Source of the DNA: a virus
Lineage: Duplodnaviria > Heunggongvirae > Uroviricota > Caudoviricetes
Virus record (IMG/VR): IMGVR_UViG_2740892019_000005
Coordinates: 1-10,614 of that record
Strand: one strand, 5' to 3'
Length of the DNA: 10,614 bases
The position numbers and the translations under genes were made by a program. Under the pieces are notes generated by a model, which was not told the origin of the DNA, searched no databases, and saw only the letters and a list, made by a program, of their open reading frames with translations. Positions 1-10,614 of this stretch are shown one piece after another; position 1 is the stretch's first letter; the number at the start of each line of letters is the position of its first letter.

Positions 1-536
1 TCATCATAACCCGCCACATCCACCGACTTTTCACGGTAGTTTTTTGCCGCTTTACCGCCCAGGCACCAAAAGCCACGACCATTGGTGAAACGCTTCATGG
101 TGAGCGTGTTATCCCGGTGCTTTTTGCCATACCACGGAGCCAGCGCCAGCAGCGACGGAATATCGCGGATGGTCGGCTCAACGTGGGTTTTCATAAAATT
201 TTCGGCATCGCCATCCGTCGGCAACCAGATAAGGGTGTTACGCTGCTTATGCTCTATGAAGTAGGCATAAACACCCAGCAGCATTTTGGAATAACCGACA
301 CGGGCAGACTTCACCACATTCACCTCACGGATGTAGTCGCTGCCCATCGCATTCATGATGGCCCGCTGAAAGGGCAGTGTTTCCCAGCGCCCTTCCTGGT
401 ATGCGGATTCTTTCGGGAGATAGTAATTAGCATCCGCCCATTCAACGGCGGTCTGCGGCTCCGGCCTGAACAGGGCACGAAGCCCGGCGCGGACAAAATG
501 CCGCAGCCTGTCAACCTGACTGTTCGATATATTCAC
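1..536 (-). CDS. A: Terminase large subunit, 5' portion only (gene continues beyond window start); GTG start at 534-536
   Basis: Minus-strand translation from 536 reads VNISNSQVDRLRHFVRAGLRALFRPEPQTAVEWADANYYLPKESAYQEGRWETLPFQRAIMNAMGSDYIREVNVV..., closely matching my recollection of lambda gpA N-terminus. No stop before position 1, so absent from the ORF track. Overlaps Nu1 3' end by 26 nt as in lambda. Confidence 0.9.
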   Translation of the reverse strand, partial: MNISNSQVDRLRHFVRAGLRALFRPEPQTAVEWADANYYLPKESAYQEGRWETLPFQRAIMNAMGSDYIREVNVVKSARVGYSKMLLGVYAYFIEHKQRNTLIWLPTDGDAENFMKTHVEPTIRDIPSLLALAPWYGKKHRDNTLTMKRFTNGRGFWCLGGKAAKNYREKSVDVAGYD

Positions 537-1056
537 TCAGCAACCCCGGTATCAGTTCATCCAGCGCGGCTGCTTTGTTCATGGCTTTGATGATATCCCG
601 TTTCAGGAAATCAATATGCCGGTTATCCAGCTCAGGAAAACGTCGCTGCACCGACAGAGGAATACCGTCGAGAATACTGGATATTTCCCTTGCTATACGC
701 GACAGCACGAAAGTACAGAATGCGGTTTCCACCACTTCAGCCGATTCTTTGGCATTTTTCAGTTCCTGCGCCGTCGCCTGAGCACGAGTCAGGCGATGGC
801 GCTCAAATTCAAGTGTTCCGGGGTGAAGATCTGCCTCGCTGGCCAGCCGCAGTTCTTCAACCTCCCGGCGCAGCTTTTCGTTCTCAATTTCAGCATCCCT
901 TTCGGCATACCATTTTATGACGGCGGCAGAATCATAAAGCACCTCATTACCCTTGCCACCGCCTCGCAGAACGGGCATTCCCTGCTCCTGCCAGTTCTGA
1001 ATGGTACGGATACTCGCACCGAAAATATCAGCCAGCTGCTTTTTGTTGACTTCCAT
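511..1056 (-). CDS. nu1: Terminase small subunit Nu1 (181 aa)
   Basis: ORF-track protein MEVNKKQLADIFGASIRTIQNWQEQGMPVLRGGGKGNEVLYDSAAVIKWYAERDAEIENEKLRREVEEL... matches lambda Nu1 from memory over almost the full length, including the N-terminal winged-HTH. Upstream sequence CCGTGGAATGAACA-ATG matches lambda. Confidence 0.95.
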   Translation of the reverse strand: MEVNKKQLADIFGASIRTIQNWQEQGMPVLRGGGKGNEVLYDSAAVIKWYAERDAEIENEKLRREVEELRLASEADLHPGTLEFERHRLTRAQATAQELKNAKESAEVVETAFCTFVLSRIAREISSILDGIPLSVQRRFPELDNRHIDFLKRDIIKAMNKAAALDELIPGLLSEYIEQSG

Positions 1057-1059
1057 TGT

Positions 1060-1260
1060 TCATTCCACGGACAAAAACAGAGAAAGGAAACAACAAAGGC
1101 CAAAAAGCCCGTTTTCAGCATCTGTCGTTTCCTTTCTTTTCAGGGGGTGTTTTAAATAAAAACATTAAGTTACGGCGAAGAAGAACGGAAACGCCTTAAA
1201 CCGGAAAATTTTCATAAATAGCGAAAACCCGCGCGCCTTCCGCCCCGTAGCCTGCCGGAT
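1060..1260. other. cos site: cosB-like segment (Nu1 R-sites and IHF region) and cosN-equivalent near 1234-1245
   Basis: Minus-strand sequence ...CGCGGGTTTTCGCTATTTATGAAAATTTTCCGGTTTAAGGCGTTTCCGTTCTTCTTCG...GAAAGGAAACGACAG... is nearly identical to the lambda left-end cosB region as I recall it. The aligned cosN 12-mer reads GGGCGGAAGGCG rather than lambda GGGCGGCGACCT. Confidence 0.7.
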
Positions 1261-1327
1261 CGCCGGAAAGGACCCGCAGGCGTTCTAGTTTATTCGCAAT
1301 GAATTCAATGTCTGACAGACCTGCGTC

Positions 1328-1345
1328 GTGCGACCACGGTCGCAC
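1328..1345. repeat. 18-bp perfect palindrome GTGCGACC-AC-GGTCGCAC, copy 1 of 4
   Basis: Exact 18-mer also at 2995-3012 and 3215-3232, and as the reverse-centre form (GT centre) at 6250-6267. The 8-bp arms are perfect reverse complements. Confidence 0.85.
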
Positions 1346-1370
1346 AGCAATGAATCAACATCCTGCATGC

Positions 1371-1438
1371 TCGCGCAGAGGAGTTCCCCGTCGGACTACG
1401 GTCATGGTTAATGCGGGAATACAGCGACGATACAGCGC
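1371..1438 (+). repeat. 68-bp direct repeat, copy 1 (second copy at 3137-3204)
   Basis: tcgcgcagaggagttccccgtcggActacggtcatGgttaatgcgggaatacAgcgacgatAcagcgc versus copy 2, with only 4 transition differences (capitals). Confidence 0.85.
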
Positions 1439-1554
1439 ATGATGTGTCAGGCTTGAATACCTTTATCCGTTAAAAGGGATATCAGTTAAGTTATCCCGTG
1501 CAGGGTATAAGCCATTATCAAAGCCACTCAGTAGCGAATGGCTTTTGTAATGGA

Positions 1555-2004
1555 CTATTTAATTAGTGATGCTGCGTATTCGATTAGATATAACTTAGGT
1601 GCCAGCCAAATTTTTAACCATGTCATATTGGCTACTACAGAAATAATAAAACTGAACCATAGAATAAAAACTGCTACTAATGGTAAGACAAAACCACTTA
1701 ACCTACCGTCACTTTCCCAAATCATAGTCGGTTTGTATTTAGGCTGTCCATTATCCCATGAGCGTCCTTCATTATCGAACTTACCAATTTCAACTTTTTT
1801 GCACTGTTTCTTCATAAACCAAATAACCAGCGGGATTGTTGAAATAGCTATTAATGTTTTAATCAGGCTATCAACCATATTCCATACCAGCAACTGATGA
1901 ACAACATCCGGAATCTGAGCCTGACTGAATGCAATGGCGGAATCAATTCCATCGCTGGCCTTCTTCAATAAATCAACAAGAATTTTATTTGCTTCTTCTT
2001 GCAT
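1555..2004 (-). CDS. Hypothetical small membrane protein (149 aa, about 2 predicted transmembrane segments); cargo gene
   Basis: ORF-track protein with hydrophobic stretches LIKTLIAISTIPLVIWF and GFVLPLVAVFILWFSFIISVVANMTWL separated by a charged loop. Region is visibly AT-rich. No lambda counterpart at this position. Confidence 0.6.
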   Translation of the reverse strand: MQEEANKILVDLLKKASDGIDSAIAFSQAQIPDVVHQLLVWNMVDSLIKTLIAISTIPLVIWFMKKQCKKVEIGKFDNEGRSWDNGQPKYKPTMIWESDGRLSGFVLPLVAVFILWFSFIISVVANMTWLKIWLAPKLYLIEYAASLIK

Positions 2005-2128
2005 GTTTATATCCTGTAAGTTGTAAGCCTGTTCGAAAAAAAATAAACAACTACGAGAGACAGAAAAAATATCTCAGGCTCTCTTTCTATAAGCTTTTAG
2101 TTGAGGATGTTCTGCAAAACAAAACTGG

Positions 2129-2971
2129 TTAGTTATGTAACTGCTTCCGGAATACAACAGCCGACGTGCTACAACGTAAAATTCGTTTGATTGTGGCCGT
2201 TGAGGAAACAGACTTGCATTTCTCAACATCATCAATGATGACCACATCCAGTACAGGTATGGCGCGGGTATGCAATGTTTTTGCACTAATAACATCACAA
2301 CCATTCAGCGGTCGAATATCTGAATCTTCAGGCACTACCAGAAGCACACGTTTTCCCGGTGCAGAAAAGCCAGCAGCAAGAGTTCGTGACAATAAAGTCA
2401 TTCCACTACGTGGCTTCATACAAATTTCAGAAATATGATTTTTTTCGTCAAAATGATGCTGGCCATCATTTTTATCATTACTCAACAACTCTGCTGTTAA
2501 TACAATCCCTGCTGTCTCAGATTTCCAGGAAATGCTGATATCCTGATCATCTGCATCAACATCATATTTCATCGAGTAAGGACTAAAGCAACGTCCAACG
2601 AACGCATCATTTACCAGTACACGCCCACCCTGTCTGACCTGAAAGTCAACGCGCCCTAAAAGCTGATTTGCTGTTACAAGCAATGCCTTTTTTCTTTTTG
2701 TTTTATTGCTCATTGCCACAAATTGTTCTGCCATCTCTCTTGTTACATCACCAGCAATTCTTTCCAGCAGTTTTACATTAACATTCTCCGTAAAATATCT
2801 GGATGACATCAGGCAGTTATTAACAATTGGCATCAGCTCACTTACGATTGTAAAAAATTCCCGGTAAAGCTCATTTTGCTTTTCAACACACAGTTCTCCA
2901 CAATCGTCCAGCTTACGCTCAAGAGCACTTAATCTTTCCATTATTGAATTAATTTTTTGCAACTCTTTCAT
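2129..2971 (-). CDS. Hypothetical protein (280 aa), no recognisable family; cargo gene upstream of the membrane protein
   Basis: Start ATG at 2969-2971 is preceded by AGGAGG (tctttgtcAGGAGGttttgATG). The ORF-track ORF extends to 3232 but that extension crosses a palindrome and a repeat and has no RBS. N-terminus looks helical/coiled-coil (MKELQKINSIMERLSALERKLDD...). Confidence 0.65.
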   Translation of the reverse strand: MKELQKINSIMERLSALERKLDDCGELCVEKQNELYREFFTIVSELMPIVNNCLMSSRYFTENVNVKLLERIAGDVTREMAEQFVAMSNKTKRKKALLVTANQLLGRVDFQVRQGGRVLVNDAFVGRCFSPYSMKYDVDADDQDISISWKSETAGIVLTAELLSNDKNDGQHHFDEKNHISEICMKPRSGMTLLSRTLAAGFSAPGKRVLLVVPEDSDIRPLNGCDVISAKTLHTRAIPVLDVVIIDDVEKCKSVSSTATIKRILRCSTSAVVFRKQLHN

Positions 2972-2994
2972 CAAAACCTCCTGACAAAGATACC

Positions 2995-3012
2995 GTGCGA
3001 CCACGGTCGCAC
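2995..3012. repeat. 18-bp palindrome GTGCGACCACGGTCGCAC, copy 2; 23 bp upstream of the 280-aa gene start
   Basis: Exact repeat of the 1328-1345 sequence. Confidence 0.85.
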
Positions 3013-3136
3013 GCTCCTGAATACATGCCCTGTTTCTTCCACCCTCGCACAGGACTGGCGAGCATGAGGGACAAACCCGCGAATCAATAGCGCGGTAAAA
3101 ACCCGGTGTGCATCGTTTTTGATTATTTCCGCACAC

Positions 3137-3204
3137 TCGCGCAGAGGAGTTCCCCGTCGGGCTACGGTCATAGTTAATGCGGGAATACGGCGACGATGCA
3201 GCGC
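3137..3204 (+). repeat. 68-bp direct repeat, copy 2
   Basis: About 94% identical to 1371-1438. The flanking upstream sequence (about 3030-3136) also resembles a lambda segment near bor that I recall, but this is unverified. Confidence 0.85.
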
Positions 3205-3214
3205 GGAATTTAGC

Positions 3215-3232
3215 GTGCGACCACGGTCGCAC
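3215..3232. repeat. 18-bp palindrome GTGCGACCACGGTCGCAC, copy 3
   Basis: Exact repeat, 10 bp after direct-repeat copy 2. Confidence 0.85.
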
Positions 3233-3251
3233 ACGAGAAACAAAGAGATTT

Positions 3252-3563
3252 TTATGCTACAGAGGAACAAGCTGGCGGGTAATTCAGCGTAGTGAATACC
3301 GGCATCTCCATCTTGTATGCGTAATGATACTCAGCAGTTGCTCCAGCAGACGCTTTCCAGCCAGGAAGCATCAAAATAGCATCAGCAGAACGAAGCATTG
3401 CAAAGCAAATATCCATGTATTAACGTTGCGTCAGGCCATTGGGTAAAGTGGCTGGATTCAGGACCGAATGACCATGACGTGACAAACGCTCAGCCTCTTT
3501 ATTAAAGGCGTCACGATTAAAATTCTCATATCCCGTCATTGGTCCGGCAATATAAATTTTCAT
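3252..3563 (-). pseudogene. DUF4406-like / nucleoside 2-deoxyribosyltransferase-like small protein interrupted by an in-frame TAA (codon 48)
   Basis: Minus-strand frame from ATG 3561-3563 reads MKIYIAGPMTGYENFNRDAFNKEAERLSRHGHSVLNPATLPNGLTQR-stop(3420-3422)-YMDICFAMLRSADAILMLPGWKASAGATAEYHYAYKMEMPVFTTLNYPPACSSVA-stop. One continuous frame with a single internal stop. The MKIYIAGPMTG start is characteristic of the family as I recall it. Confidence 0.55.
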
Positions 3564-3604
3564 TTACTATCCAACAAATTAAGTTAGTTTTTGATGCAGA
3601 TGGA

Positions 3605-4066
3605 TTAATTCAGGCATTGCGTCCTGATGTACTCCTGCAAATATCCAACCTGTTTCGTCACTGTGACGATTCGCTCTCTGAGGATGAAATAATCCCGTTC
3701 AGCGGAGTCAGTAAGTCGGGGGCCGGTAGCATCGCCCAGGCCGCCGGTGATGGTCGTTCCGTTCGCGGGACATCTGGCGTTGAGGTGCAGCCCACACTTG
3801 CCAGTGCGAACACAACGCTGCAAATCATCAAGCTGCTTTTTGGCATCAGCTAAGTCCTTCGTGTATTTGGCATCCAGAGCCGCTACATCACGCTGGCGGA
3901 TCTGCATGTCTTTGATGGTAGCGTTCGCCAGCTTCAACTCTCTGGCGTTTTTGTCGCGCTGCTCTTTATAGGAGATGGCGTTATCACGGTAATGATTAAC
4001 AGCCAACGACAGGCAGACGATGATGCAGATAACCAGTGTGGAGATAATCGCGGTGACTCTGCTCAT
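3605..4066 (-). CDS. Rz: Spanin inner-membrane subunit Rz (i-spanin)
   Basis: N-terminal TM segment ([20 protein letters not shown]) followed by a coiled-coil periplasmic domain, similar to lambda Rz. Start ATG 4064-4066 overlaps the R stop (TAATG). Chosen over the upstream ATG at 4078. Confidence 0.85.
3658..3846 (-). CDS. Rz1: Spanin outer-membrane lipoprotein Rz1 (o-spanin), embedded in the +1 frame of Rz
   Basis: Signal peptide ending in lipobox-like ...ALASVGC-TS, proline-rich body, and C-terminal TPLNGIIS motif as in lambda Rz1. Lies entirely within Rz. Confidence 0.75.
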
Positions 4067-4563
4067 TACTGCCCCCACAAACAGACTTCACGCTCAATCT
4101 CACGGCGAGTCATCAGCCCTTTCCATTGCTTACCGCCAGCATATGTCCAGCGACGTAGTTGATCACATGCACCTTTGATATCGCCCTGGTTGATTTTGCG
4201 AAGAAGCGTCGATGTTCTGAAATTGCCTGCACCCACGTTGTAAACGAACGAGTAAAGAGCACCACGCGTTGTTTCCGGTATATCGACTTTGATGTACGGG
4301 TTAATTTGTCTGGCGACAGTAGCAAGGTCTTTATTCAGGAGAGCTTTGCATTCTGCTTCGGTATACGTTTTACCGAGCATAATGTCTTTTCCTGTATGCC
4401 CGTAACATACAGTCCATACACCAACGATGTCTTTGTAGGGGTTATGTTTCACACCTTCCAGACCATCGTTGCCGCTCGGACCAGAGATGAGCACAGATGC
4501 TATGGCAATAGCCCCGCCACCAATAGCAGTTGCGACAGCTTTGCGTAATGATGACTGCATCAT
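4066..4563 (-). CDS. R: SAR endolysin (phage 21 R-type lysozyme)
   Basis: [38 protein letters not shown]... has a Gly/Ala-rich N-terminal signal-anchor-release segment followed by a T4-lysozyme-like catalytic domain. Close to the phage 21 R sequence as I recall it. Confidence 0.9.
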
Positions 4564-4832
4564 ATTTCCTTCGGTGCTCTCTTTCCCAATTCACCAATAA
4601 CCATCGCCGTGGCGGAAATATTATTGGCATCAGTTTTATCCAATATGTCCTGCAATATCTTCGTGCGCTTCATCTGCTCGCGTTTATTGAGCCGGTATGT
4701 AAGTACACCGAGGATAATGCTGAACGCGACACCGATAATGAAGCCCCAATCCTGCAATGACAGGCTGGCAAAGAACGCAGTAAGACCAGCACTACCATAA
4801 GGTGCGCTGCTGTATCGTTCATCCATCTTCAT
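4560..4832 (-). CDS. S: Holin, probable pinholin (class II, 2 TMDs) with dual-start motif MKM
   Basis: 90 aa with two adjacent hydrophobic segments ([11 protein letters not shown] and [18 protein letters not shown]) and a charged C-terminus. Stop overlaps the R start (ATGA). Preceded by GAGGT. Confidence 0.75.
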
Positions 4833-4928
4833 ATCTATTACCTCGCAATAGTTGCTGAGGTTTCGGCTTGGAAACTATACGGCGAGAAATAACCCCCATC
4901 AAAAACGGCAGGGGAATATATTCTTCAG

Positions 4929-6050
4929 TTACTCAAATAACTTTTTCACTTCATCAACTGTCTGAAGATAACGTTCACCCTCAATCTCAATACCGATTGC
5001 CTGACGACCTAACTTCAGCGCGGCTTTAATAGTAGAGCCTGATCCCATAAAGAAATCGGCAACGATATCTCCGGGGCGTGAACTACTTTTTATAATATGT
5101 TCCATCATCGCTGCAGGTTTTTCACATGGGTGCTTGCCAGGATAATATTGCACAGGAGGAAACTCCCATACATCGGTATAAGGTACATCAGCAGTAACAT
5201 GAAATGGGCGGCGCAAATTTTCATACTGAGCCTTCAAATCATCATACTGCTTCTTTACTTCCTCATAATGCAATTTCAGATCGCTATAACGCTTTTCATG
5301 TTCTGAATAATCAACATTAAAAGGATATGGACACGGGACACCGAGTGAATCTGCCTTCCTGCGAAATAATTCGCATAGTTTATTAAAATCAATTAATGAT
5401 GGAAGCCGCCACTGCGAATAAGAAAACCAGTGCGAACACATCTGCTTTCCTGTCGCTGAATTAATGTCTGCGGCTGATATATCTAACTGACGGCGAGCCA
5501 GCGAAAAAGCATCAATTAGTGGAGAAAAAATATTTTTTCTTAGATCTGCACATTTTGAAGCATAACCTGACTGACCTTTAGCATAACCTGACGCGCCGTA
5601 ATGCTCTGCAAATAATATTCTTTCAGTAGCAGGAAAATAAGCCCTTAAACTTTCTTTATGACAACCGCGCCACATACCACTGGGTTTAGCCCAAATGATA
5701 TGGTTCAGAACATTGAAACGGTCGCGAGTTAATAATTCAATTTTTGACGCAAGGCGAGAGCCGGTAAACATATACAGGCTGCCATTAGGGGCCAATATCC
5801 GCCAAAATTCTGCCAAAAATTCGTCAATCCACCCCAAAAAGTCAGCATCGCTATCCCACTGGTTATCCCATGCGTTAGCCTTTACGCCGAAGTATGGTGG
5901 GTCTGTTGCAATCAAATTGACCGAGTTATCAGGGATGGTTTTGATAAATTGCAGAGAATCTGCGCAAACGAGTTGTGCGCCATGAATATTAGTGGTTTTG
6001 AACATAGCTATTATTTTTTTGCCTGGGTAAGCTAACCCGGCGATGCGCAT
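4929..6050 (-). CDS. DNA methyltransferase, beta-class (motif IV DPPY precedes motif I FxGxG), probably N6-adenine; YhdJ-like architecture
   Basis: N-terminal ...VNLIATDPPYFG... and C-terminal ...GDIVADFFMGSGSTIKAALKLGRQAIGIEIE... Alternative start at 6003-6005 (MFKTTNIHG...); neither start has a strong SD. AT-rich relative to the flanking lysis genes. Confidence 0.85.
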   Translation of the reverse strand: MRIAGLAYPGKKIIAMFKTTNIHGAQLVCADSLQFIKTIPDNSVNLIATDPPYFGVKANAWDNQWDSDADFLGWIDEFLAEFWRILAPNGSLYMFTGSRLASKIELLTRDRFNVLNHIIWAKPSGMWRGCHKESLRAYFPATERILFAEHYGASGYAKGQSGYASKCADLRKNIFSPLIDAFSLARRQLDISAADINSATGKQMCSHWFSYSQWRLPSLIDFNKLCELFRRKADSLGVPCPYPFNVDYSEHEKRYSDLKLHYEEVKKQYDDLKAQYENLRRPFHVTADVPYTDVWEFPPVQYYPGKHPCEKPAAMMEHIIKSSSRPGDIVADFFMGSGSTIKAALKLGRQAIGIEIEGERYLQTVDEVKKLFE

Positions 6051-6140
6051 CGCGGGTGGGCTTTAGGTTCAGCCTATAGCTCTGGCATGGGTTGACCGCA
6101 GGACAAGCTGCAACTTGTCCTGCGCCCACTTTTCAGGCAC

Positions 6141-6162
6141 AAAAAAACCGCCATAAAGGCGG
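6141..6162 (-). terminator. Intrinsic terminator on the minus strand (tR'-like), about 55 nt downstream of the inferred late-promoter start
   Basis: Minus-strand RNA ...AAG-CCGCC-UUUAU-GGCGG-UUUUUUU: 5-bp all-GC stem, 5-nt loop, U7 tract. Confidence 0.5.
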
Positions 6163-6201
6163 CTTGTTGGCTGTTGGGTACAAAAAACACAACTTAATAA
6201 A

Positions 6202-6230
6202 ACAATAACTAAAAACCGTCATTTTGCCAA
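6202..6230 (-). promoter_or_regulatory. Sigma70-like promoter on the minus strand: -35 TTGGCA (6225-6230), 17-bp spacer, -10 TATTGT (6202-6207); candidate late promoter
   Basis: Hexamers and spacing read directly from the sequence. Position between the upstream small genes and the MTase/lysis cassette, with a short leader ending in a terminator, mirrors the lambdoid pR'-tR' arrangement. Confidence 0.45.
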
Positions 6231-6249
6231 GCTTTTTCGTTTTTGTGCT

Positions 6250-6267
6250 GTGCGACCGTGGTCGCAC
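6250..6267. repeat. 18-bp palindrome, copy 4 (GT-centre orientation; extended perfect palindrome CTGTGCGACCGTGGTCGCACAG at 6248-6269)
   Basis: Centre at about -63 relative to the inferred transcription start of the late promoter. On the plus strand it is followed by TTTTT. Confidence 0.85.
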
Positions 6268-6272
6268 AGTTT

Positions 6273-6500
6273 TTAGAAAGTTGCCTGCTTATATTCATCG
6301 GTCAAAGAATATCGACCAGATCCACTACGCTTTGCAACCCCAAAACAGATCATCTGTTCGATGATAAATTCAACGGCAACTTGACTCAAAAAACAGGCTT
6401 CGCTTAACTCTTTCAGGGAAATGCGTGGGTATCCACGCATAACACATTCCACACTCAGGGCCGCTTCAGTCATATTTCCACGAATTTCATTAATATTCAT
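6273..6500 (-). CDS. Small hypothetical protein (75 aa), possible winged-helix DNA-binding fold
   Basis: ATG 6498-6500 is preceded by GAGAGG. Sequence ...ISLKELSEACFLSQVAVEFIIEQMICFGVAKRSGSGRYSL... is compatible with a wHTH. It occupies the position where Q would be expected, but is too small and lacks a zinc finger. Confidence 0.55.
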   Translation of the reverse strand: MNINEIRGNMTEAALSVECVMRGYPRISLKELSEACFLSQVAVEFIIEQMICFGVAKRSGSGRYSLTDEYKQATF

Positions 6501-6513
6501 AACGCCTCTCTAA

Positions 6514-6735
6514 TCAATCTTGAAACTGGAAATCAACATCAGCCATAAAGCGGTTCAACTCAGCCAGTTTTGACCCCATAGTCCCAACTAAGCGACCAGC
6601 CAGTCGGTCTGCTAGGTTGGTACTGTTGAAACCATATTCCTTTTCGAAACGTTCAACCTTCTGCCACAACTCATACAGTTCGTTAGCTATCTCCGCAACG
6701 TCGTCGCGCATTTTTTCGTTACCTTGATAATTCAT
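6514..6735 (-). CDS. Small acidic hypothetical protein (73 aa from the RBS-supported start; the ORF-track start at 6753 adds 6 aa)
   Basis: GGAGGA lies 4-5 nt upstream of the ATG at 6733-6735. No family recognised. Confidence 0.5.
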   Translation of the reverse strand: MNYQGNEKMRDDVAEIANELYELWQKVERFEKEYGFNSTNLADRLAGRLVGTMGSKLAELNRFMADVDFQFQD

Positions 6736-6825
6736 AATATCCTCCAAATTCATATAGTTAGTAGGTTATTGCCCCTCAATGACACGAACTGTAACTCTGC
6801 CAAACGAACACATCCAGTGTTATTT

Positions 6826-6841
6826 TTCACTTTTTAGTGAA
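6826..6841. promoter_or_regulatory. Inverted repeat TTCACT-TTTT-AGTGAA in the toxin-antitoxin promoter region; candidate antitoxin operator
   Basis: Perfect 6-bp arms about 60 bp upstream of the toxin start, followed by GGAGG RBS. Confidence 0.4.
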
Positions 6842-6900
6842 ATTTTTAATTTGCGCTGTTTTCTCGTTTTGGTGTATTTTATGGGTATGGAGGCTATAAT

Positions 6901-7212
6901 ATGTTTAACGTGATAACCCACCCTGCAGCACTGGATGAACTGCTTGAACTACCAGATGATTTGCGAGGTCGCATGACCAGATTAATTGAGCGACTGGAGA
7001 AAGAAGGCAACAAACTGAAGATGCCTCATAGCCGTGTAATAGGTGGAGGGCTTTTTGAACTACGAGTAGGGGATAAAAACATCGCAAGAACGCTGTACGC
7101 CTACGCGACTGGTAACGAAATTTATCTATTGCATGCATTTGTAAAAAAGACACAGAAAACACCGGTGAAGGCTATCGAAATCGCCAGAACTCGCCTGAAG
7201 GAGATGAACTGA
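6901..7212 (+). CDS. Type II toxin, RelE/ParE superfamily, HigB-like (phage Gp49-like)
   Basis: 103 aa; ...GGGLFELRVGDKNIARTLYAYATGNEIYLLHAFVKKTQKTPVKAIEIARTRLKEM matches the conserved C-terminal signature of Gp49/HigB-like toxins as I recall it. GGAGG RBS. Stop overlaps the antitoxin start (ATGA). Confidence 0.8.
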   Translation: MFNVITHPAALDELLELPDDLRGRMTRLIERLEKEGNKLKMPHSRVIGGGLFELRVGDKNIARTLYAYATGNEIYLLHAFVKKTQKTPVKAIEIARTRLKEMN

Positions 7213-7499
7213 TGAAAGCGAAAGGCATCCCGTTTAACGAAGTAAAAGAAAAACTCCTCAACACTCCAGAAGCCGTCAAAGGATATGAAGAGGCCGACAA
7301 AGAGCTGGAGATGGTAGAAATGTTATACGAAATGAGGGAAAGAGCAGGTTTAACGAAATCAGCTCTGGCTGAACGAATGGGGTTGCGCCCGTCAGCCATC
7401 AGCCGCCTGGAAAGCAATCCTTTAGGGGCAAGTATGAAAACTTTGGCTAAATATGCTCATGCCTGCGGCGCAACCATCGATATTCGCGCTGTTTATTAA
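7212..7499 (+). CDS. Type II antitoxin, XRE-family HTH (HigA-like)
   Basis: 95 aa with HTH ...LTKSALAERMGLRPSAISRLESN...; translationally coupled downstream of the toxin (toxin-first order typical of HigBA). Confidence 0.8.
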   Translation: MKAKGIPFNEVKEKLLNTPEAVKGYEEADKELEMVEMLYEMRERAGLTKSALAERMGLRPSAISRLESNPLGASMKTLAKYAHACGATIDIRAVY

Positions 7500-7513
7500 T
7501 TAGACCCTTTTAC

Positions 7514-7537
7514 CACCCCGTCCAGAAGGGCGGGGTG
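7514..7537. terminator. Strong hairpin between convergent genes (10-bp stem CACCCCGTCC/GGGCGGGGTG, loop AGAA); possible bidirectional terminator
   Basis: Seen in sequence; sits in the gap between the antitoxin stop and the stop of the 67-aa gene. No clear U-tract on either strand. Confidence 0.35.
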
Positions 7538-7541
7538 TGCA

Positions 7542-7745
7542 TCAATGATGTGAACGCTCAACAGCGATAGTTTTCTGACAATGCTGGGCAATCTCTCGCG
7601 ACATGTTGATGAGTCGTGAAACCTCACCAATATGTAGGCTGGCTTCTGGAGAAGCCAGGGTGACGCTAACCAGATCCAGAACGGCGTCAATATCTCTTAA
7701 ATTTGAATCGAGTTGTTCAAGAGTTGATACGGCTGCTTCAGACAT
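7542..7745 (-). CDS. Hypothetical protein (67 aa), probably SOS-regulated
   Basis: ORF immediately downstream (minus strand) of a LexA-box-like sequence. No TM segment and no recognised family. Weak RBS. Confidence 0.5.
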   Translation of the reverse strand: MSEAAVSTLEQLDSNLRDIDAVLDLVSVTLASPEASLHIGEVSRLINMSREIAQHCQKTIAVERSHH

Positions 7746-7783
7746 TAAATCTCATACCATTTAACTAAAAAAGGTTATTTATA

Positions 7784-7799
7784 CTGTATAAAATTACAG
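7784..7799. promoter_or_regulatory. LexA box (SOS box) taCTGTataaaattACAGgg
   Basis: CTGT-N8-ACAG with AT-rich spacer matches the E. coli LexA consensus TACTGTATATATATACAGTA. Lies about 45 bp upstream of the 67-aa gene start in its promoter region. Confidence 0.65.
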
Positions 7800-7827
7800 G
7801 GTAAAACTCAAACTTTACGGTCAATTT

Positions 7828-8070
7828 TCAATGAATTAACTGCGTAAACTGCTGTGTGGCCCGATACTTATGCTCTCTCCCTATGCCACGATCAGCTTTC
7901 TCAAGAAGTCCAGTACGGACAGCAGAATCAAGCATCCTTTTAACAATTCTGCTATTTAACCCAACATCAAAAGCAAGCATCGAAGCGAAAACAAACCCAT
8001 CACCACCATCAGAAAAGCTCTTTTCGCTCCGTTTTCGTATCATTTCAAAAAGCAATGCCTTTTTATCCAT
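7828..8070 (-). CDS. Hypothetical protein (80 aa), possible winged-helix
   Basis: GGAGGG RBS 5 nt upstream of the ATG; last gene of a six-gene minus-strand operon. Confidence 0.6.
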   Translation of the reverse strand: MDKKALLFEMIRKRSEKSFSDGGDGFVFASMLAFDVGLNSRIVKRMLDSAVRTGLLEKADRGIGREHKYRATQQFTQLIH

Positions 8071-8088
8071 TTATCCCTCCGTGACCAG

Positions 8089-8415
8089 TCACGCTTTGAG
8101 CGCAAGTTTCAACCTCGTGGTTGTAAGGTGGCATGAGCCTTCGCCATCAAAAATGCATTCTGAAACAGGCATTTTTTGACCACATCGCGGGCAAGTAGTA
8201 GATAGCTGCTTCTGCAGCTCCTTATAGTTTTTCCTGATCAGCAAACCAATGACTTCGTTCTCCGAATATGGAACTCGCCCTGGTCTACGCAATACACAAA
8301 TTTCCCCCAACATACGTAACTCGTCAGGTTCTAGAATCCAGTCCCGTCTTGATGTGCCTTCCTTCTTCAACCGTTCCCTGCGTCTCCTTTGCCGTTCTGC
8401 CGGTGTCAGCGCCAT
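8089..8415 (-). CDS. Hypothetical protein (108 aa) with Arg/Lys-rich N-terminus and Cys-rich C-terminus (CPRCG...C...C, possible zinc ribbon)
   Basis: AGGAGG RBS upstream of the ATG at 8413-8415. Confidence 0.6.
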   Translation of the reverse strand: MALTPAERQRRRRERLKKEGTSRRDWILEPDELRMLGEICVLRRPGRVPYSENEVIGLLIRKNYKELQKQLSTTCPRCGQKMPVSECIFDGEGSCHLTTTRLKLALKA

Positions 8416-8430
8416 AAATCCTCCTGAAAA

Positions 8431-8844
8431 TTACTTAACCCAATTAACTACACCGCCAGCGGCCACAACCGCCCTTTCACAGTCACGCTCATATCTCAAA
8501 GGTTGAAATACACCATCAATAAAATATTTATCTCCACCAAACGCTGCAGGAAGTGAAACAGAAAACTGAATACGATTATCATCCGGCACCACCGGCAGTG
8601 GCTGGGCTACATATAATGACTGAACATACCAGCCCTTTGATAACCAACTGTCAGCAATGTTTTTACTCCGGGTTATTGCCGGAATACCTAAGCCATTGTC
8701 TGAATGCAGCCATGCCACCGGTTCTGCTTCCAGCGAGGCTAACGCTATTTCATAAGCCCGGCGCTCAATATTGTCTCTCACGTCCAGGCTGCCTATGCGC
8801 TCTTTGATTTCTTTAATCAGTTCTTTGTCGGTAAAAGTGCTCAT
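8431..8844 (-). CDS. Hypothetical phage protein (138 aa), paralog of the next gene
   Basis: RBS AAGGAGA upstream of the ATG at 8842-8844 (the ORF track extends 7 codons further without an RBS). Shares the motif ASLEAEPVAW with the 150-aa neighbour. Confidence 0.65.
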   Translation of the reverse strand: MSTFTDKELIKEIKERIGSLDVRDNIERRAYEIALASLEAEPVAWLHSDNGLGIPAITRSKNIADSWLSKGWYVQSLYVAQPLPVVPDDNRIQFSVSLPAAFGGDKYFIDGVFQPLRYERDCERAVVAAGGVVNWVK

Positions 8845-8845
8845 A

Positions 8846-9295
8846 TCAATCTCCTTTGGTACCAATGTTTACAGCCTGGCAAGCCTCTTTGAGCACCCAG
8901 TCAACAGCGTCTTTCCATGCTCCGGTTTCGACTGGCGGATTTTCACGCTTAACCTGTTCATAGAAGCGCACTGCTTTAATCAATCCTTCTGGTGTCAGTG
9001 GCACAGGCGGGGCAGTGAATAACGCCTGAATTTCATAGTTCGGTCTGTCGTTGCAACCCTCTTTTGTCGGTACATATTTCCAGTCACCAACCCACGGCTC
9101 CCCCTGTGAGTCCGTAATGCCTTTTTTCACGTAGCGATATCGCCACGCCATCGGTTCTGCTTCCAGCGATGCCTGTGCGATACGAAACACATTGGCAAGC
9201 AGGCTGTCTGAGGATTGGTTATCGTGCGCCGGGTCGCTCAGGAAGCCATTGATGAATGATTTAATCTTCGAGTTTTCTCTGGTAATAGTGGTCAT
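8846..9295 (-). CDS. Hypothetical phage protein (150 aa), paralog of the previous gene
   Basis: RBS AAGGAGAG upstream of the ATG at 9293-9295. The ORF-track N-terminal extension to 9553 overlaps the upstream gene and is rejected. Motif ASLEAEPMAW. Confidence 0.65.
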   Translation of the reverse strand: MTTITRENSKIKSFINGFLSDPAHDNQSSDSLLANVFRIAQASLEAEPMAWRYRYVKKGITDSQGEPWVGDWKYVPTKEGCNDRPNYEIQALFTAPPVPLTPEGLIKAVRFYEQVKRENPPVETGAWKDAVDWVLKEACQAVNIGTKGD

Positions 9296-9296
9296 A

Positions 9297-10049
9297 TCAC
9301 TCTCCTTTGCGAATCTCTGCGGCAAAGTCAGTCGCATGCTCACCGAGTAGTTTCCAGTTATCGCGTATATCAGATGCAAGCGACTGTTCGGATTTTGAGT
9401 TACATTTCTGTGCAAACATTTCCACCCCCTGCGCCCGCACTTCAGACAGGAAAGAGTCGGTGGCTGGGGTTTCGACATTAGGTCGAAGCTCATAATCACA
9501 AACTCTTTCAATCCATGGTGATACTCTGTCGCATTTCCTCTTCTTGCGTTCACCGACCTTGGTTGCCTGCTGAATAATTACCCCCCAGCAAATGCTTTCG
9601 ACCTCTTCGCTCCATCCATCGCAAGCATCGCCTCTATAGTCGTCAATTGCAGCCTCAGCAGCAGCGATAGCCTCCTCAGCAGTTTTGTGACACTCGAAAC
9701 TAAATTCAGAGCCATATGAGAAATACATAGCCCCGGCCTTCAGCGCCGCATTCTCCGCCGCCAGAGCCGCGCAACTGGCCTCCAGCTCTGCAATGCGTTT
9801 GCTTTGAGCCTCTCGTTCATCCAGCAGTGCCTGCACTACTTCAGGGTTGAAAGCTGCGATATAATGAGCGTTGTTCTCTGCGTTTTTCTGTCCGTCAAAG
9901 CCGGTCCATTTGATAACGTCTTCACATCGTTTATCACCGGGCGTATGCACTGCATACGTACCAGTACCCGGCGAAATAAATGCGACCCATTCACCCTGTG
10001 TTGCCTGTTTTGCTATCTCACGCAGTACCTGATAATTGATTTCACTCAC
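9297..10049 (-). CDS. Hypothetical phage protein (250 aa) with central Ala-rich coiled-coil; possibly Ea22-like
   Basis: GTG start at 10047-10049 is preceded by AGGAGG and overlaps the upstream gene stop (GTGA). Contains ELEASCAALAAENAALKAG. The Ea22-like call is a recollection, not verified. Confidence 0.55.
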   Translation of the reverse strand: MSEINYQVLREIAKQATQGEWVAFISPGTGTYAVHTPGDKRCEDVIKWTGFDGQKNAENNAHYIAAFNPEVVQALLDEREAQSKRIAELEASCAALAAENAALKAGAMYFSYGSEFSFECHKTAEEAIAAAEAAIDDYRGDACDGWSEEVESICWGVIIQQATKVGERKKRKCDRVSPWIERVCDYELRPNVETPATDSFLSEVRAQGVEMFAQKCNSKSEQSLASDIRDNWKLLGEHATDFAAEIRKGE

Positions 10050-10468
10050 AGTACTACCTCCTGAAGATTTCCCTGATAAAACGCCAGCACACGCTGCATA
10101 ACTTCGCTCTTCTGGCAATCGTGACAAATCATGTTCAAGCGCCTGTCGTAACGACGTATTTCTCCGTCAGGTAATGACCAGATAAGGTCTGGATCAACCA
10201 CTACCGATTTCTTCGGCTTTACTCTTGATAGCTTTTTACGGGCGTTTTGCCAGTCCTTGCGTGCTTGTGCAGACAGAAATATCCCGGAGCCAGAGATATA
10301 CAAATCACCACTGGCAGCAAGCTCTCTTGATAAACGACTAACAGCACACCGGCTAATACCAGTTTCATCCGCAAGTTGCCTAACCGTTCCTCGTCCATTC
10401 AGGCGTACGAGTTCCACAATTTGTTTATTCAGTTCTTCCCTCTGTTCTGGTGTAAAAGCCTTTGCCAT
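10046..10468 (-). CDS. Hypothetical HTH DNA-binding protein (140 aa), first gene of the operon
   Basis: AAGGAGAA RBS. HTH-like segment TVRQLADETGISRCAVSRLSREL. Confidence 0.6.
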   Translation of the reverse strand: MAKAFTPEQREELNKQIVELVRLNGRGTVRQLADETGISRCAVSRLSRELAASGDLYISGSGIFLSAQARKDWQNARKKLSRVKPKKSVVVDPDLIWSLPDGEIRRYDRRLNMICHDCQKSEVMQRVLAFYQGNLQEVVL

Positions 10469-10547
10469 TACGATTCTCCTTGCCCTTTTACAAGACGGGA
10501 GAAAATTGCGGATACATATTTAGCCTGATGAATAGCATCAGCCAGGG

Positions 10548-10614
10548 GGTAATGACTCCAACTTACTGATAGTGTTTTATGTTCAGATAATGCCCGATGA
10601 CTTTGTCATGCAGC
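10548..10614. mobile_element. IS1 terminal inverted repeat and first 67 bp (element continues beyond window end)
   Basis: GGTAATGACTCCAACTTACTGATAGTGTTTTATGTTCAGATAATGCCCGATGACTTTGTCATGCAGC matches the IS1 end (insB-proximal IR) as I recall it, with one or two differences. Confidence 0.8.

Follow-up and report, generated by a model that had tools for sequence, protein, structure and literature searches.

The DNA analyzed here, referred to as the window, comprises positions 1 to 10,614 of the IMG/VR virus record IMGVR_UViG_2740892019_000005 (Caudoviricetes) and contains four perfect copies of an 18-bp palindrome, which we discuss as predicted binding sites of the partition protein SopB. Phage N15 and its relatives are maintained in E. 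coli as linear plasmids and, judged from its similarity to these elements, the window is the segment of an N15-like (Ravinvirus) linear E. coli phage-plasmid that includes the cohesive-end site (cos), the lysis genes, the late promoter and early genes. Its closest database matches, which show 95-98% identity across 75-82% of the window, are Escherichia phage YDC107_1, a member of Ravinvirus, the genus of N15, and E. coli plasmids of approximately 46 kb, and its gene order is that of phage N15. An earlier interpretation made from the letters alone (the sequence-only reading) had treated the element as a prophage, which has to be corrected in that the family consists of plasmid-prophages and not of chromosomal prophages.

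A motif search with GTGCGACCNNGGTCGCAC yielded exactly four matches in the window, at 1328-1345 (P1), 2995-3012 (P2), 3215-3232 (P3) and 6250-6267 (P4), which are listed without strand. All four have the form GTGCGACC-NN-GGTCGCAC with zero mismatches; the central dinucleotide is AC in P1 (GTGCGACCACGGTCGCAC), P2 and P3, and GT in P4, i.e. the same site on the other strand. Neighbouring copies are separated by 220-3035 bp. No additional copy of the 18-mer was found in the window at up to two mismatches, nor do the 8-bp half-sites GTGCGACC and GGTCGCAC occur in the window outside the four palindromes. Since 200 dinucleotide-preserving shuffles of the window contained on average 0.00 and at most 0 copies, the previous notion that four perfect copies are not a product of chance is borne out.

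The palindromes are distributed over a region in which all major genes are encoded on the minus strand. The left end of the window holds the end of the gene for the terminase large subunit, then Nu1 (511-1056, minus strand; Pfam Phage_Nu1) and a lambda-type cohesive-end site (cosN; 1234..1245, minus strand; GGGCGGAAGGCG compared with GGGCGGCGTCCG in N15), from which P1 is 83 bp away. Two AT-rich cargo open reading frames (ORFs) of 149 and 280 amino acids (1555-2004 and 2129-2971, both minus strand) lie between P1 and P2, and a 172-bp non-coding segment (~3029..3204) lies between P2 and P3. A truncated 68-bp copy of this segment is located beside P1 (1370..1438); over 69 bp it is 94% identical to 3136-3204, and the two constitute a direct repeat on either side of the cargo. 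P3 is followed by the genes for Rz, lysozyme and holin (3605-4832, minus strand), an N6/N4 DNA methylase gene (4929-6050, minus strand), an intrinsic terminator resembling tR' (6145..6165, minus strand; 8-bp stem and T run) located 3' of the late promoter, and the late promoter itself, a homologue of N15 p52 (6202..6230, minus strand; -35 TTGGCA at 6230-6225, 17-nt spacer, -10 TATTGT at 6207-6202). P4 lies 19 bp upstream of the conserved -35 and directly downstream of the gene for a 75-amino-acid homologue of N15 gp51 (6273-6500), which it adjoins. The distances given in the sequence-only reading could be reproduced: P2 is located 23 nt upstream of the 280-amino-acid ORF (ATG at 2971), P1 and P3 are 22 bp and 9 bp away from the two 68-bp repeats, and P4, measured from its centre, precedes the inferred late start by about 63 nt.

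Correspondence with the SopB sites of N15

The oligonucleotides representing the inverted repeats (IR) IR1 to IR4 of N15 all have the form GTGCGACC-NN-GGTCGCAC, with the centres AC, TC, AT and AC (PMC7205306 Table 4). When the four IR sites of N15 were joined to an artificial centromere, N15 SopB, used as SopB-GFP, formed normal foci there, and SopB of F was non-functional with N15 IR1-4 (PMC7205306). The centromeres of F and N15 SopB are one nucleotide per half-site apart, and the specificity maps to the helix-turn-helix (PMC2910045). The F sopC site TGGGACCACGGTCCCA, which the sequence-only reading had quoted, is correct, and it does differ by one base per arm from the motif shared by the window and N15. 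An F-type site (TGGGACC..GGTCCCA) was detected neither in the window nor in the relatives searched, and a tandem 43-bp arrangement as in sopC is likewise missing from them. The genome of N15 has four occurrences of the motif. The one at 33479 lies within repA and has a single mismatch in the N15 record, that at 35930 is found in the interval from Q to gene 41, that at 41124 directly precedes the annotated -35 of the late promoter, and that at 45561 follows gene 58 and is annotated as a putative terminator. The four exact copies of the window thus agree both with the IR1-IR4 oligonucleotides and with the N15 genome.

The agreement extends to the location of the sites, which is evident for IR3 from an alignment and for IR4 from synteny together with a local match. 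In the alignment of the reverse complement of window positions 6300-6040 with N15 41095-41360 and two relatives (mean column identity 91%), P4 falls on N15 IR3, and the -35 and -10 hexamers and the intrinsic terminator that come after the site are conserved. More precisely, the late promoter of the window, which was also flagged by a consensus scan, aligns with the annotated -35 (41162-41167) and -10 (41185-41190) of N15, and the tR'-like terminator, at which Q presumably acts by antitermination, corresponds to the stem_loop 41229-41250 of N15. P1, P2 and P3 are located between a remnant of a gene-57-like DUF4406 gene and cos, which is the IR4 region of N15, and the core of P2 and its adjoining flank match N15 IR4 at 45560-45581. 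Most E. coli relatives have two IR4-region copies 220 bp apart; P2 is conserved in L001, L002 and L247, and the P2-P3 pair with its spacing of 220 bp recurs in many N15-like viral contigs (L037, L049, L083, L084). P1 is absent from N15, L001 and L002, but the same junction is present in plasmid pE16EC0316-2 (L247) and a few chromosomal prophages. That palindromes lie close to the cargo gene and to both 68-bp repeats, which had been taken for a regulatory placement, is better described as a conserved module boundary consisting of the IR4 region and a generic lambdoid 172-bp segment.

Collinear relatives that are 95-98% identical to the window have genes for SopA, ParB/SopB and a telomere resolvase. 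Among these, pE16EC0316-2 encodes sopA, ParB/SopB and the telomere resolvase and carries six sites: P1, P2, P3 and IR3 are joined by IR2, which is located in a gap beside Q, and by IR1 within repA. In L002 and N15 the gap holding IR2 is that between Q and the exonuclease gene. In plasmid L002, genes for a protelomerase and SopA are accompanied by one for a ParB-family protein, which is 73% identical to N15 SopB and matches crystal structures of F SopB (E = 2e-38). At the conserved Arg in its recognition helix and the residues on either side, this protein retains the N15-type D-R-N, where F has S-R-K. As in N15 with its four sites, the sites are single and dispersed, with four of them in 5 kb in the window and four to six per genome in the relatives.

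At least 119 IMG/VR stretches contain exact matches to the motif, with up to four copies per stretch, and 60 of these 119 carry N15-specific genes if RepA, TelN, Q and gp51 are used as markers (counting the lambda-like terminase small subunit inflates this number to 87 of 119). In bacterial contigs, represented by one genome per species, all of the matches listed (at least 120) are single copies from unrelated, mostly GC-rich taxa, and such scattered single matches are what 16 specified bases should give by chance in 298 Gb; per 4.6 Mb, the same 16 bases would lead to an expectation of about 0.001 copies. Among 5426 complete E. coli genomes, which were searched for the contexts of the sites and not for the bare 18-mer, homologous contexts are confined to phage and plasmid DNA, and the IR3/late-promoter context was found in 16 genomes, always on plasmids. 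These counts bear on the reading of the 18-mer as a generic interspersed repeat of the host (REP/BIME-like), for which a high copy number throughout host chromosomes would be expected whatever the mobile-element context. A sample of 104 distinct contexts from motif-bearing viral stretches and four N15-family references was used to assess conservation. With one exception, only positions 1, 17 and 18 of the arms vary across these contexts, the central dinucleotide is free, and the flanks contain approximately 0 bits; in N15-like contigs, the 14 specified bases of the inner part are constant. The combination of invariant arm bases, lack of covariation and a free centre is the pattern expected when a dimeric protein recognises specific bases. 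A separate observation concerns the Verrucomicrobia metagenome-assembled genome OH_PDB_171, in which four contigs (L175-L178) have one exact 18-mer each; this exceeds the chance expectation for a single genome, and the 18-mers may represent a repeat of this genome's own.

Candidate centromere sites and rival explanations

Sequence identity, positional orthology, membership in the N15 family, the presence of sopAB in relatives and the strict conservation of the core, which is confined to Sop-bearing elements, all lead to the interpretation of the palindromes as SopB sites. On the basis of these comparisons we consider it highly probable that the four palindromes serve an N15-like linear phage-plasmid as the centromere (parS-type) sites of Sop, its partition system. 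The feature as such is already known in the form of the dispersed SopB centromere sites of the N15 type, one of which is at the late promoter. The ParB/SopB-like binder, one of two hypotheses of the sequence-only reading, thus gains support from the identity of the 18-mer with the N15 SopB centromere repeat, from the assignment of the window to the N15 family and from the SopA/SopB genes of its relatives.

In type Ia ParABS systems, such as Sop of F and N15, a SopB dimer binds an inverted repeat and nucleates a partition complex, which is positioned by the SopA ATPase; the sites of F are arranged in tandem in sopC, and those of the N15 type are single and dispersed. For the window, a SopB dimer, the product of a gene in another part of the replicon, would bind to each 16-18-bp inverted repeat with one helix-turn-helix per arm, and site-bound SopB would then nucleate a larger SopB-DNA partition complex. 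Positioning of this complex by the SopA ATPase would ensure that the low-copy plasmid prophage is inherited by each daughter cell. The replicon from which the window derives presumably still encodes SopB, and this protein is expected to bind the window copies; the extra IR4-region copies (P1-P3) would add to the strength of partition, and SopB might also have an effect on the adjacent cargo genes. The centromere sites IR1-IR4 of N15 were reportedly described by Ravin & Lane in 1999 and by Grigoriev & Lobocka in 2001, and the latter authors are said to have found that two sites work better than one. In a published N15 study, the Sop system is reported to facilitate late gene expression, and Ravin, Rech & Lane are said to have observed in 2008 that lysis is delayed in N15 carrying mutations in IR2 or IR3 and that the late promoter requires IR3 to be fully active. 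P4, the counterpart of IR3, may also aid Q-dependent late transcription, in line with what is reported for N15. This bears on the other hypothesis of the sequence-only reading, a phage transcription factor: a separate protein is not needed, while the regulatory role that was envisaged has a reported counterpart in N15, exerted through Sop.

Copies of the SopB site next to cos are also found in integrated prophages that lack Sop genes (2B8, L246, L249 3000 and L250-L270), in perfect form and in forms with one mismatch, two symmetric mismatches or three mismatches. Phage 2B8 (L006 48654), which has an integrase and O/P replication genes and no ParB, contains the cos-proximal IR-like sequence GTGCAACCACGGTTGCAC, a symmetric two-mismatch form in which the palindrome is kept. 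Unbiased retrieval by flanking context from Sop-less integrated lambdoids (L250-L270) yielded 18 of 21 copies with the sequence TTGCGACCACAGTCACAC, in which the palindrome is lost by three mismatches to the motif, two copies of the 2B8 form and one one-sided intermediate; the 18 identical copies may stem from one clonal lineage and are not to be taken as a count of independent events. At least one integrated prophage, L246 (20067), contains a perfect copy in the context of P1; this chromosomal element has an integrase, and no Sop genes are present within 40 kb. These forms are evidence that the site is exchanged between phage-plasmids and integrated prophages by way of their shared packaging module, and they suggest that it tends to decay where the Sop system is missing.

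Some of these data weigh against centromere sites that are in current use. The perfect copy in the Sop-less prophage L246 means that a perfect site alone is no proof of current function. In addition, the Pfam domain search of the window proteins revealed neither sopA nor sopB, in agreement with the statement of the sequence-only reading that no ParB-like gene is in the window, and the window ends in an insertion sequence (IS1), so that the source replicon could be rearranged or defective. The sites might thus be intact but idle relics of such an element, possibly one without a working Sop system. This is the one rival explanation with real weight, and it is also favoured by the fact that IS1 truncates the exonuclease gene at 10548 with a junction that is absent from PLSDB, and by the persistence of perfect or near-perfect copies in Sop-less integrated prophages. 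We nevertheless regard it as unlikely, because all four copies of the window are perfect, whereas those in Sop-less lineages are mostly decayed, because the rest of the window is collinear with, and 95-98% identical to, intact phage-plasmids encoding SopAB, and because an IS1 in the exonuclease gene leaves the partition genes untouched.

A palindrome of this kind could also act as an RNA or DNA hairpin, i.e. as a terminator or as a transcript-stabilising stem-loop of the late operon. In the N15 record, IR4 (stem_loop 45560-45584) is indeed annotated as a putative rho-independent terminator, the terminator scan flagged P2 as terminator-like on the minus strand, and the variant of phage 2B8 has changed symmetrically. 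However, P2 is the only one of the four copies with a T-rich tail, and a weak one; P1, P3 and P4 were not flagged, so the scan supports at most one copy and the terminator or hairpin was rejected as a general explanation. P4 is located upstream of the late promoter and hence outside the late transcript, and the two central bases would leave a loop of only 2 nt, while an intrinsic terminator calls for at least 3 nt. Moreover, the arms are invariant and do not covary and the centre is free, as expected for base-specific protein contacts, Sop-less phages contain a one-sided intermediate and many decayed copies that are not palindromic, and the same sequences have been published as SopB centromeres (PMC7205306). 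All in all, a hairpin function is very improbable. The last rival, operators for another dimeric phage regulator that would control the late promoter and the cargo, for example the gp51-like protein encoded at 6273-6500, could draw on the position of P4, which abuts the stop codon of this gene and precedes the late start by about 63 nt, and on the distance of 23 nt between P2 and the ATG of the cargo gene. The 75-amino-acid protein, however, contains no DNA-binding domain above threshold (its sole match, PCI at 19.4 bits, is below the cut-off), relatives have further copies of the motif within repA and beside Q, as would be expected of dispersed centromeres but not of a promoter regulon, and the cognate binder is known from experiments (PMC7205306). 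We find such a regulator scarcely credible.

If the palindromes are SopB sites, their arrangement in the window allows for a more far-reaching scenario, which we put forward as a speculation that is more likely wrong than right by a wide measure. The cos-proximal centromere would have been multiplied from one to three copies around an exchangeable cargo, and, beyond any gain in partition strength, SopB bound at 2995 and 1328 could keep the cargo genes silent or gated in the lysogen and perhaps control access to cos as well. The inverted repeat together with the 172-bp segment may represent a recombination handle by which cargo and centromeres move between phage-plasmids and lambdoid prophages, and lone chromosomal copies might hinder incoming phage-plasmids.

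Cargo module and other features of the window

The cargo module, which is located between the IR4-region sites and cos and flanked by the direct repeats, encodes a soluble protein of 280 amino acids and a hydrophobic protein of 149 amino acids. Neither of the two genes had a match in Pfam or PADLOC, and L001 shows an internal deletion in this module. In Klebsiella telomere phages, the telocin toxin/immunity cassette occupies another locus, between repA and telN, so that an identification of the cargo with this cassette was considered and dropped. The 172-bp segment next to the cargo is a generic cos-proximal lambdoid sequence and not specific for phage-plasmids; its homologues are present in 3087 of the 5426 complete E. 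coli genomes, mostly on the chromosome, and in DLP12-like prophages it sits downstream of ylcI. RNAalifold, applied to 30 homologues, predicted for the late-sense strand a long hairpin that includes three compensatory pairs. As the single-sequence z-score was only -0.25 and Rfam gave no match, a structured RNA is unproven for this segment. A search of the whole window against Rfam at E-value threshold resulted in two sub-threshold chance matches (RyhB and ctRNA) and in none at the palindromes or the 68-bp repeats.

The tR'-like terminator is followed on its 3' side by a GC-rich hairpin without T run (GCAGGACAAG...CTTGTCCTGC; 6096-6125, minus strand), which is kept in N15 and the relatives and may be the second terminator-like element of the late leader. 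Beyond the gp51 homologue, the window encodes among others a homologue of N15 gp50 and, in opposite orientation to its neighbours, a RelE/ParE-type toxin (Pfam Gp49) with an XRE-type antitoxin (6901-7499, plus strand). This pair is homologous to N15 genes 49/48 and is probably a plasmid-addiction module. Several small early genes lie between the toxin-antitoxin pair and the right end of the window, where positions 10548-10614 represent the end of an element that we take to be IS1 from its inverted repeat. The gene broken by IS1 encodes a 3'-5' exonuclease and comes after a DUF977 gene in relatives.

Significance and relation to known partition systems

With the help of the 18-mers, the window can be annotated as belonging to a plasmid-prophage whose segregation would depend on a Sop (ParABS) system, and no new regulator is required. 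Their orthology with the N15 sites also pinpoints the late promoter region, and the motif provides a specific, searchable signature of N15-type phage-plasmids in assemblies in which the sites lack annotation. Such elements are often mis-assembled into circular or internally duplicated records. Records of relatives (L001, CP025712.1, 34650-46299; CP088562.1, 58000-75538) either have long inverted duplications around protelomerase/repA or were deposited as circular molecules of 62-75 kb, and the annotation of the duplicated arm is fragmented; this is probably due to assembly read-through at the hairpin telomeres of linear plasmids.

What is new compared to N15 is of minor extent and consists of the three IR4-region copies instead of one, which bracket the cargo, of the six sites per replicon and of the prophage relics. 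The variation in copy number, with four sites in N15 and five to six in E. coli relatives, is a small addition to what is known of these centromeres. Another one is the decay of the site in Sop-less lambdoids, a natural contrast that favours SopB-dependent selection and at the same time records gene flow between phage-plasmids and prophages.

Among known systems, IR1-IR4 of N15 are the closest counterpart of the window sites. They have the same arms, GTGCGACC and GGTCGCAC, and a free 2-bp centre, and they are likewise single, dispersed and far from sopAB, with IR3 at the late promoter and IR4 between the lysis region and cos. In contrast to the window with its three IR4-region copies, and to most E. 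coli relatives with two, N15 has only one, and it has four sites per replicon as opposed to six in the closest relative of the window. Furthermore, gene 59 occupies the region between IR4 and cos in N15, where the window has the pair of ORFs of 280 and 149 amino acids, and N15 SopB is 73% identical to SopB of the lineage to which the window belongs. The sopC centromere of F shares with the window sites arms of 7-8 bp, a 2-bp centre and a homologous family of binding proteins, but its 16-bp repeat TGGGACCACGGTCCCA is part of tandem 43-bp repeats, whereas the sites of the window are dispersed outside any 43-bp array. The parS sites of ParABS systems in general are similar in being short perfect palindromes that are bound by a helix-turn-helix ParB dimer and are present in several copies per replicon. 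Chromosomal parS, however, has a sequence of the TGTTNCACGTGAAACA type, while here at least one of the sites is also located at a phage late promoter, for which a regulatory side-role has been reported.

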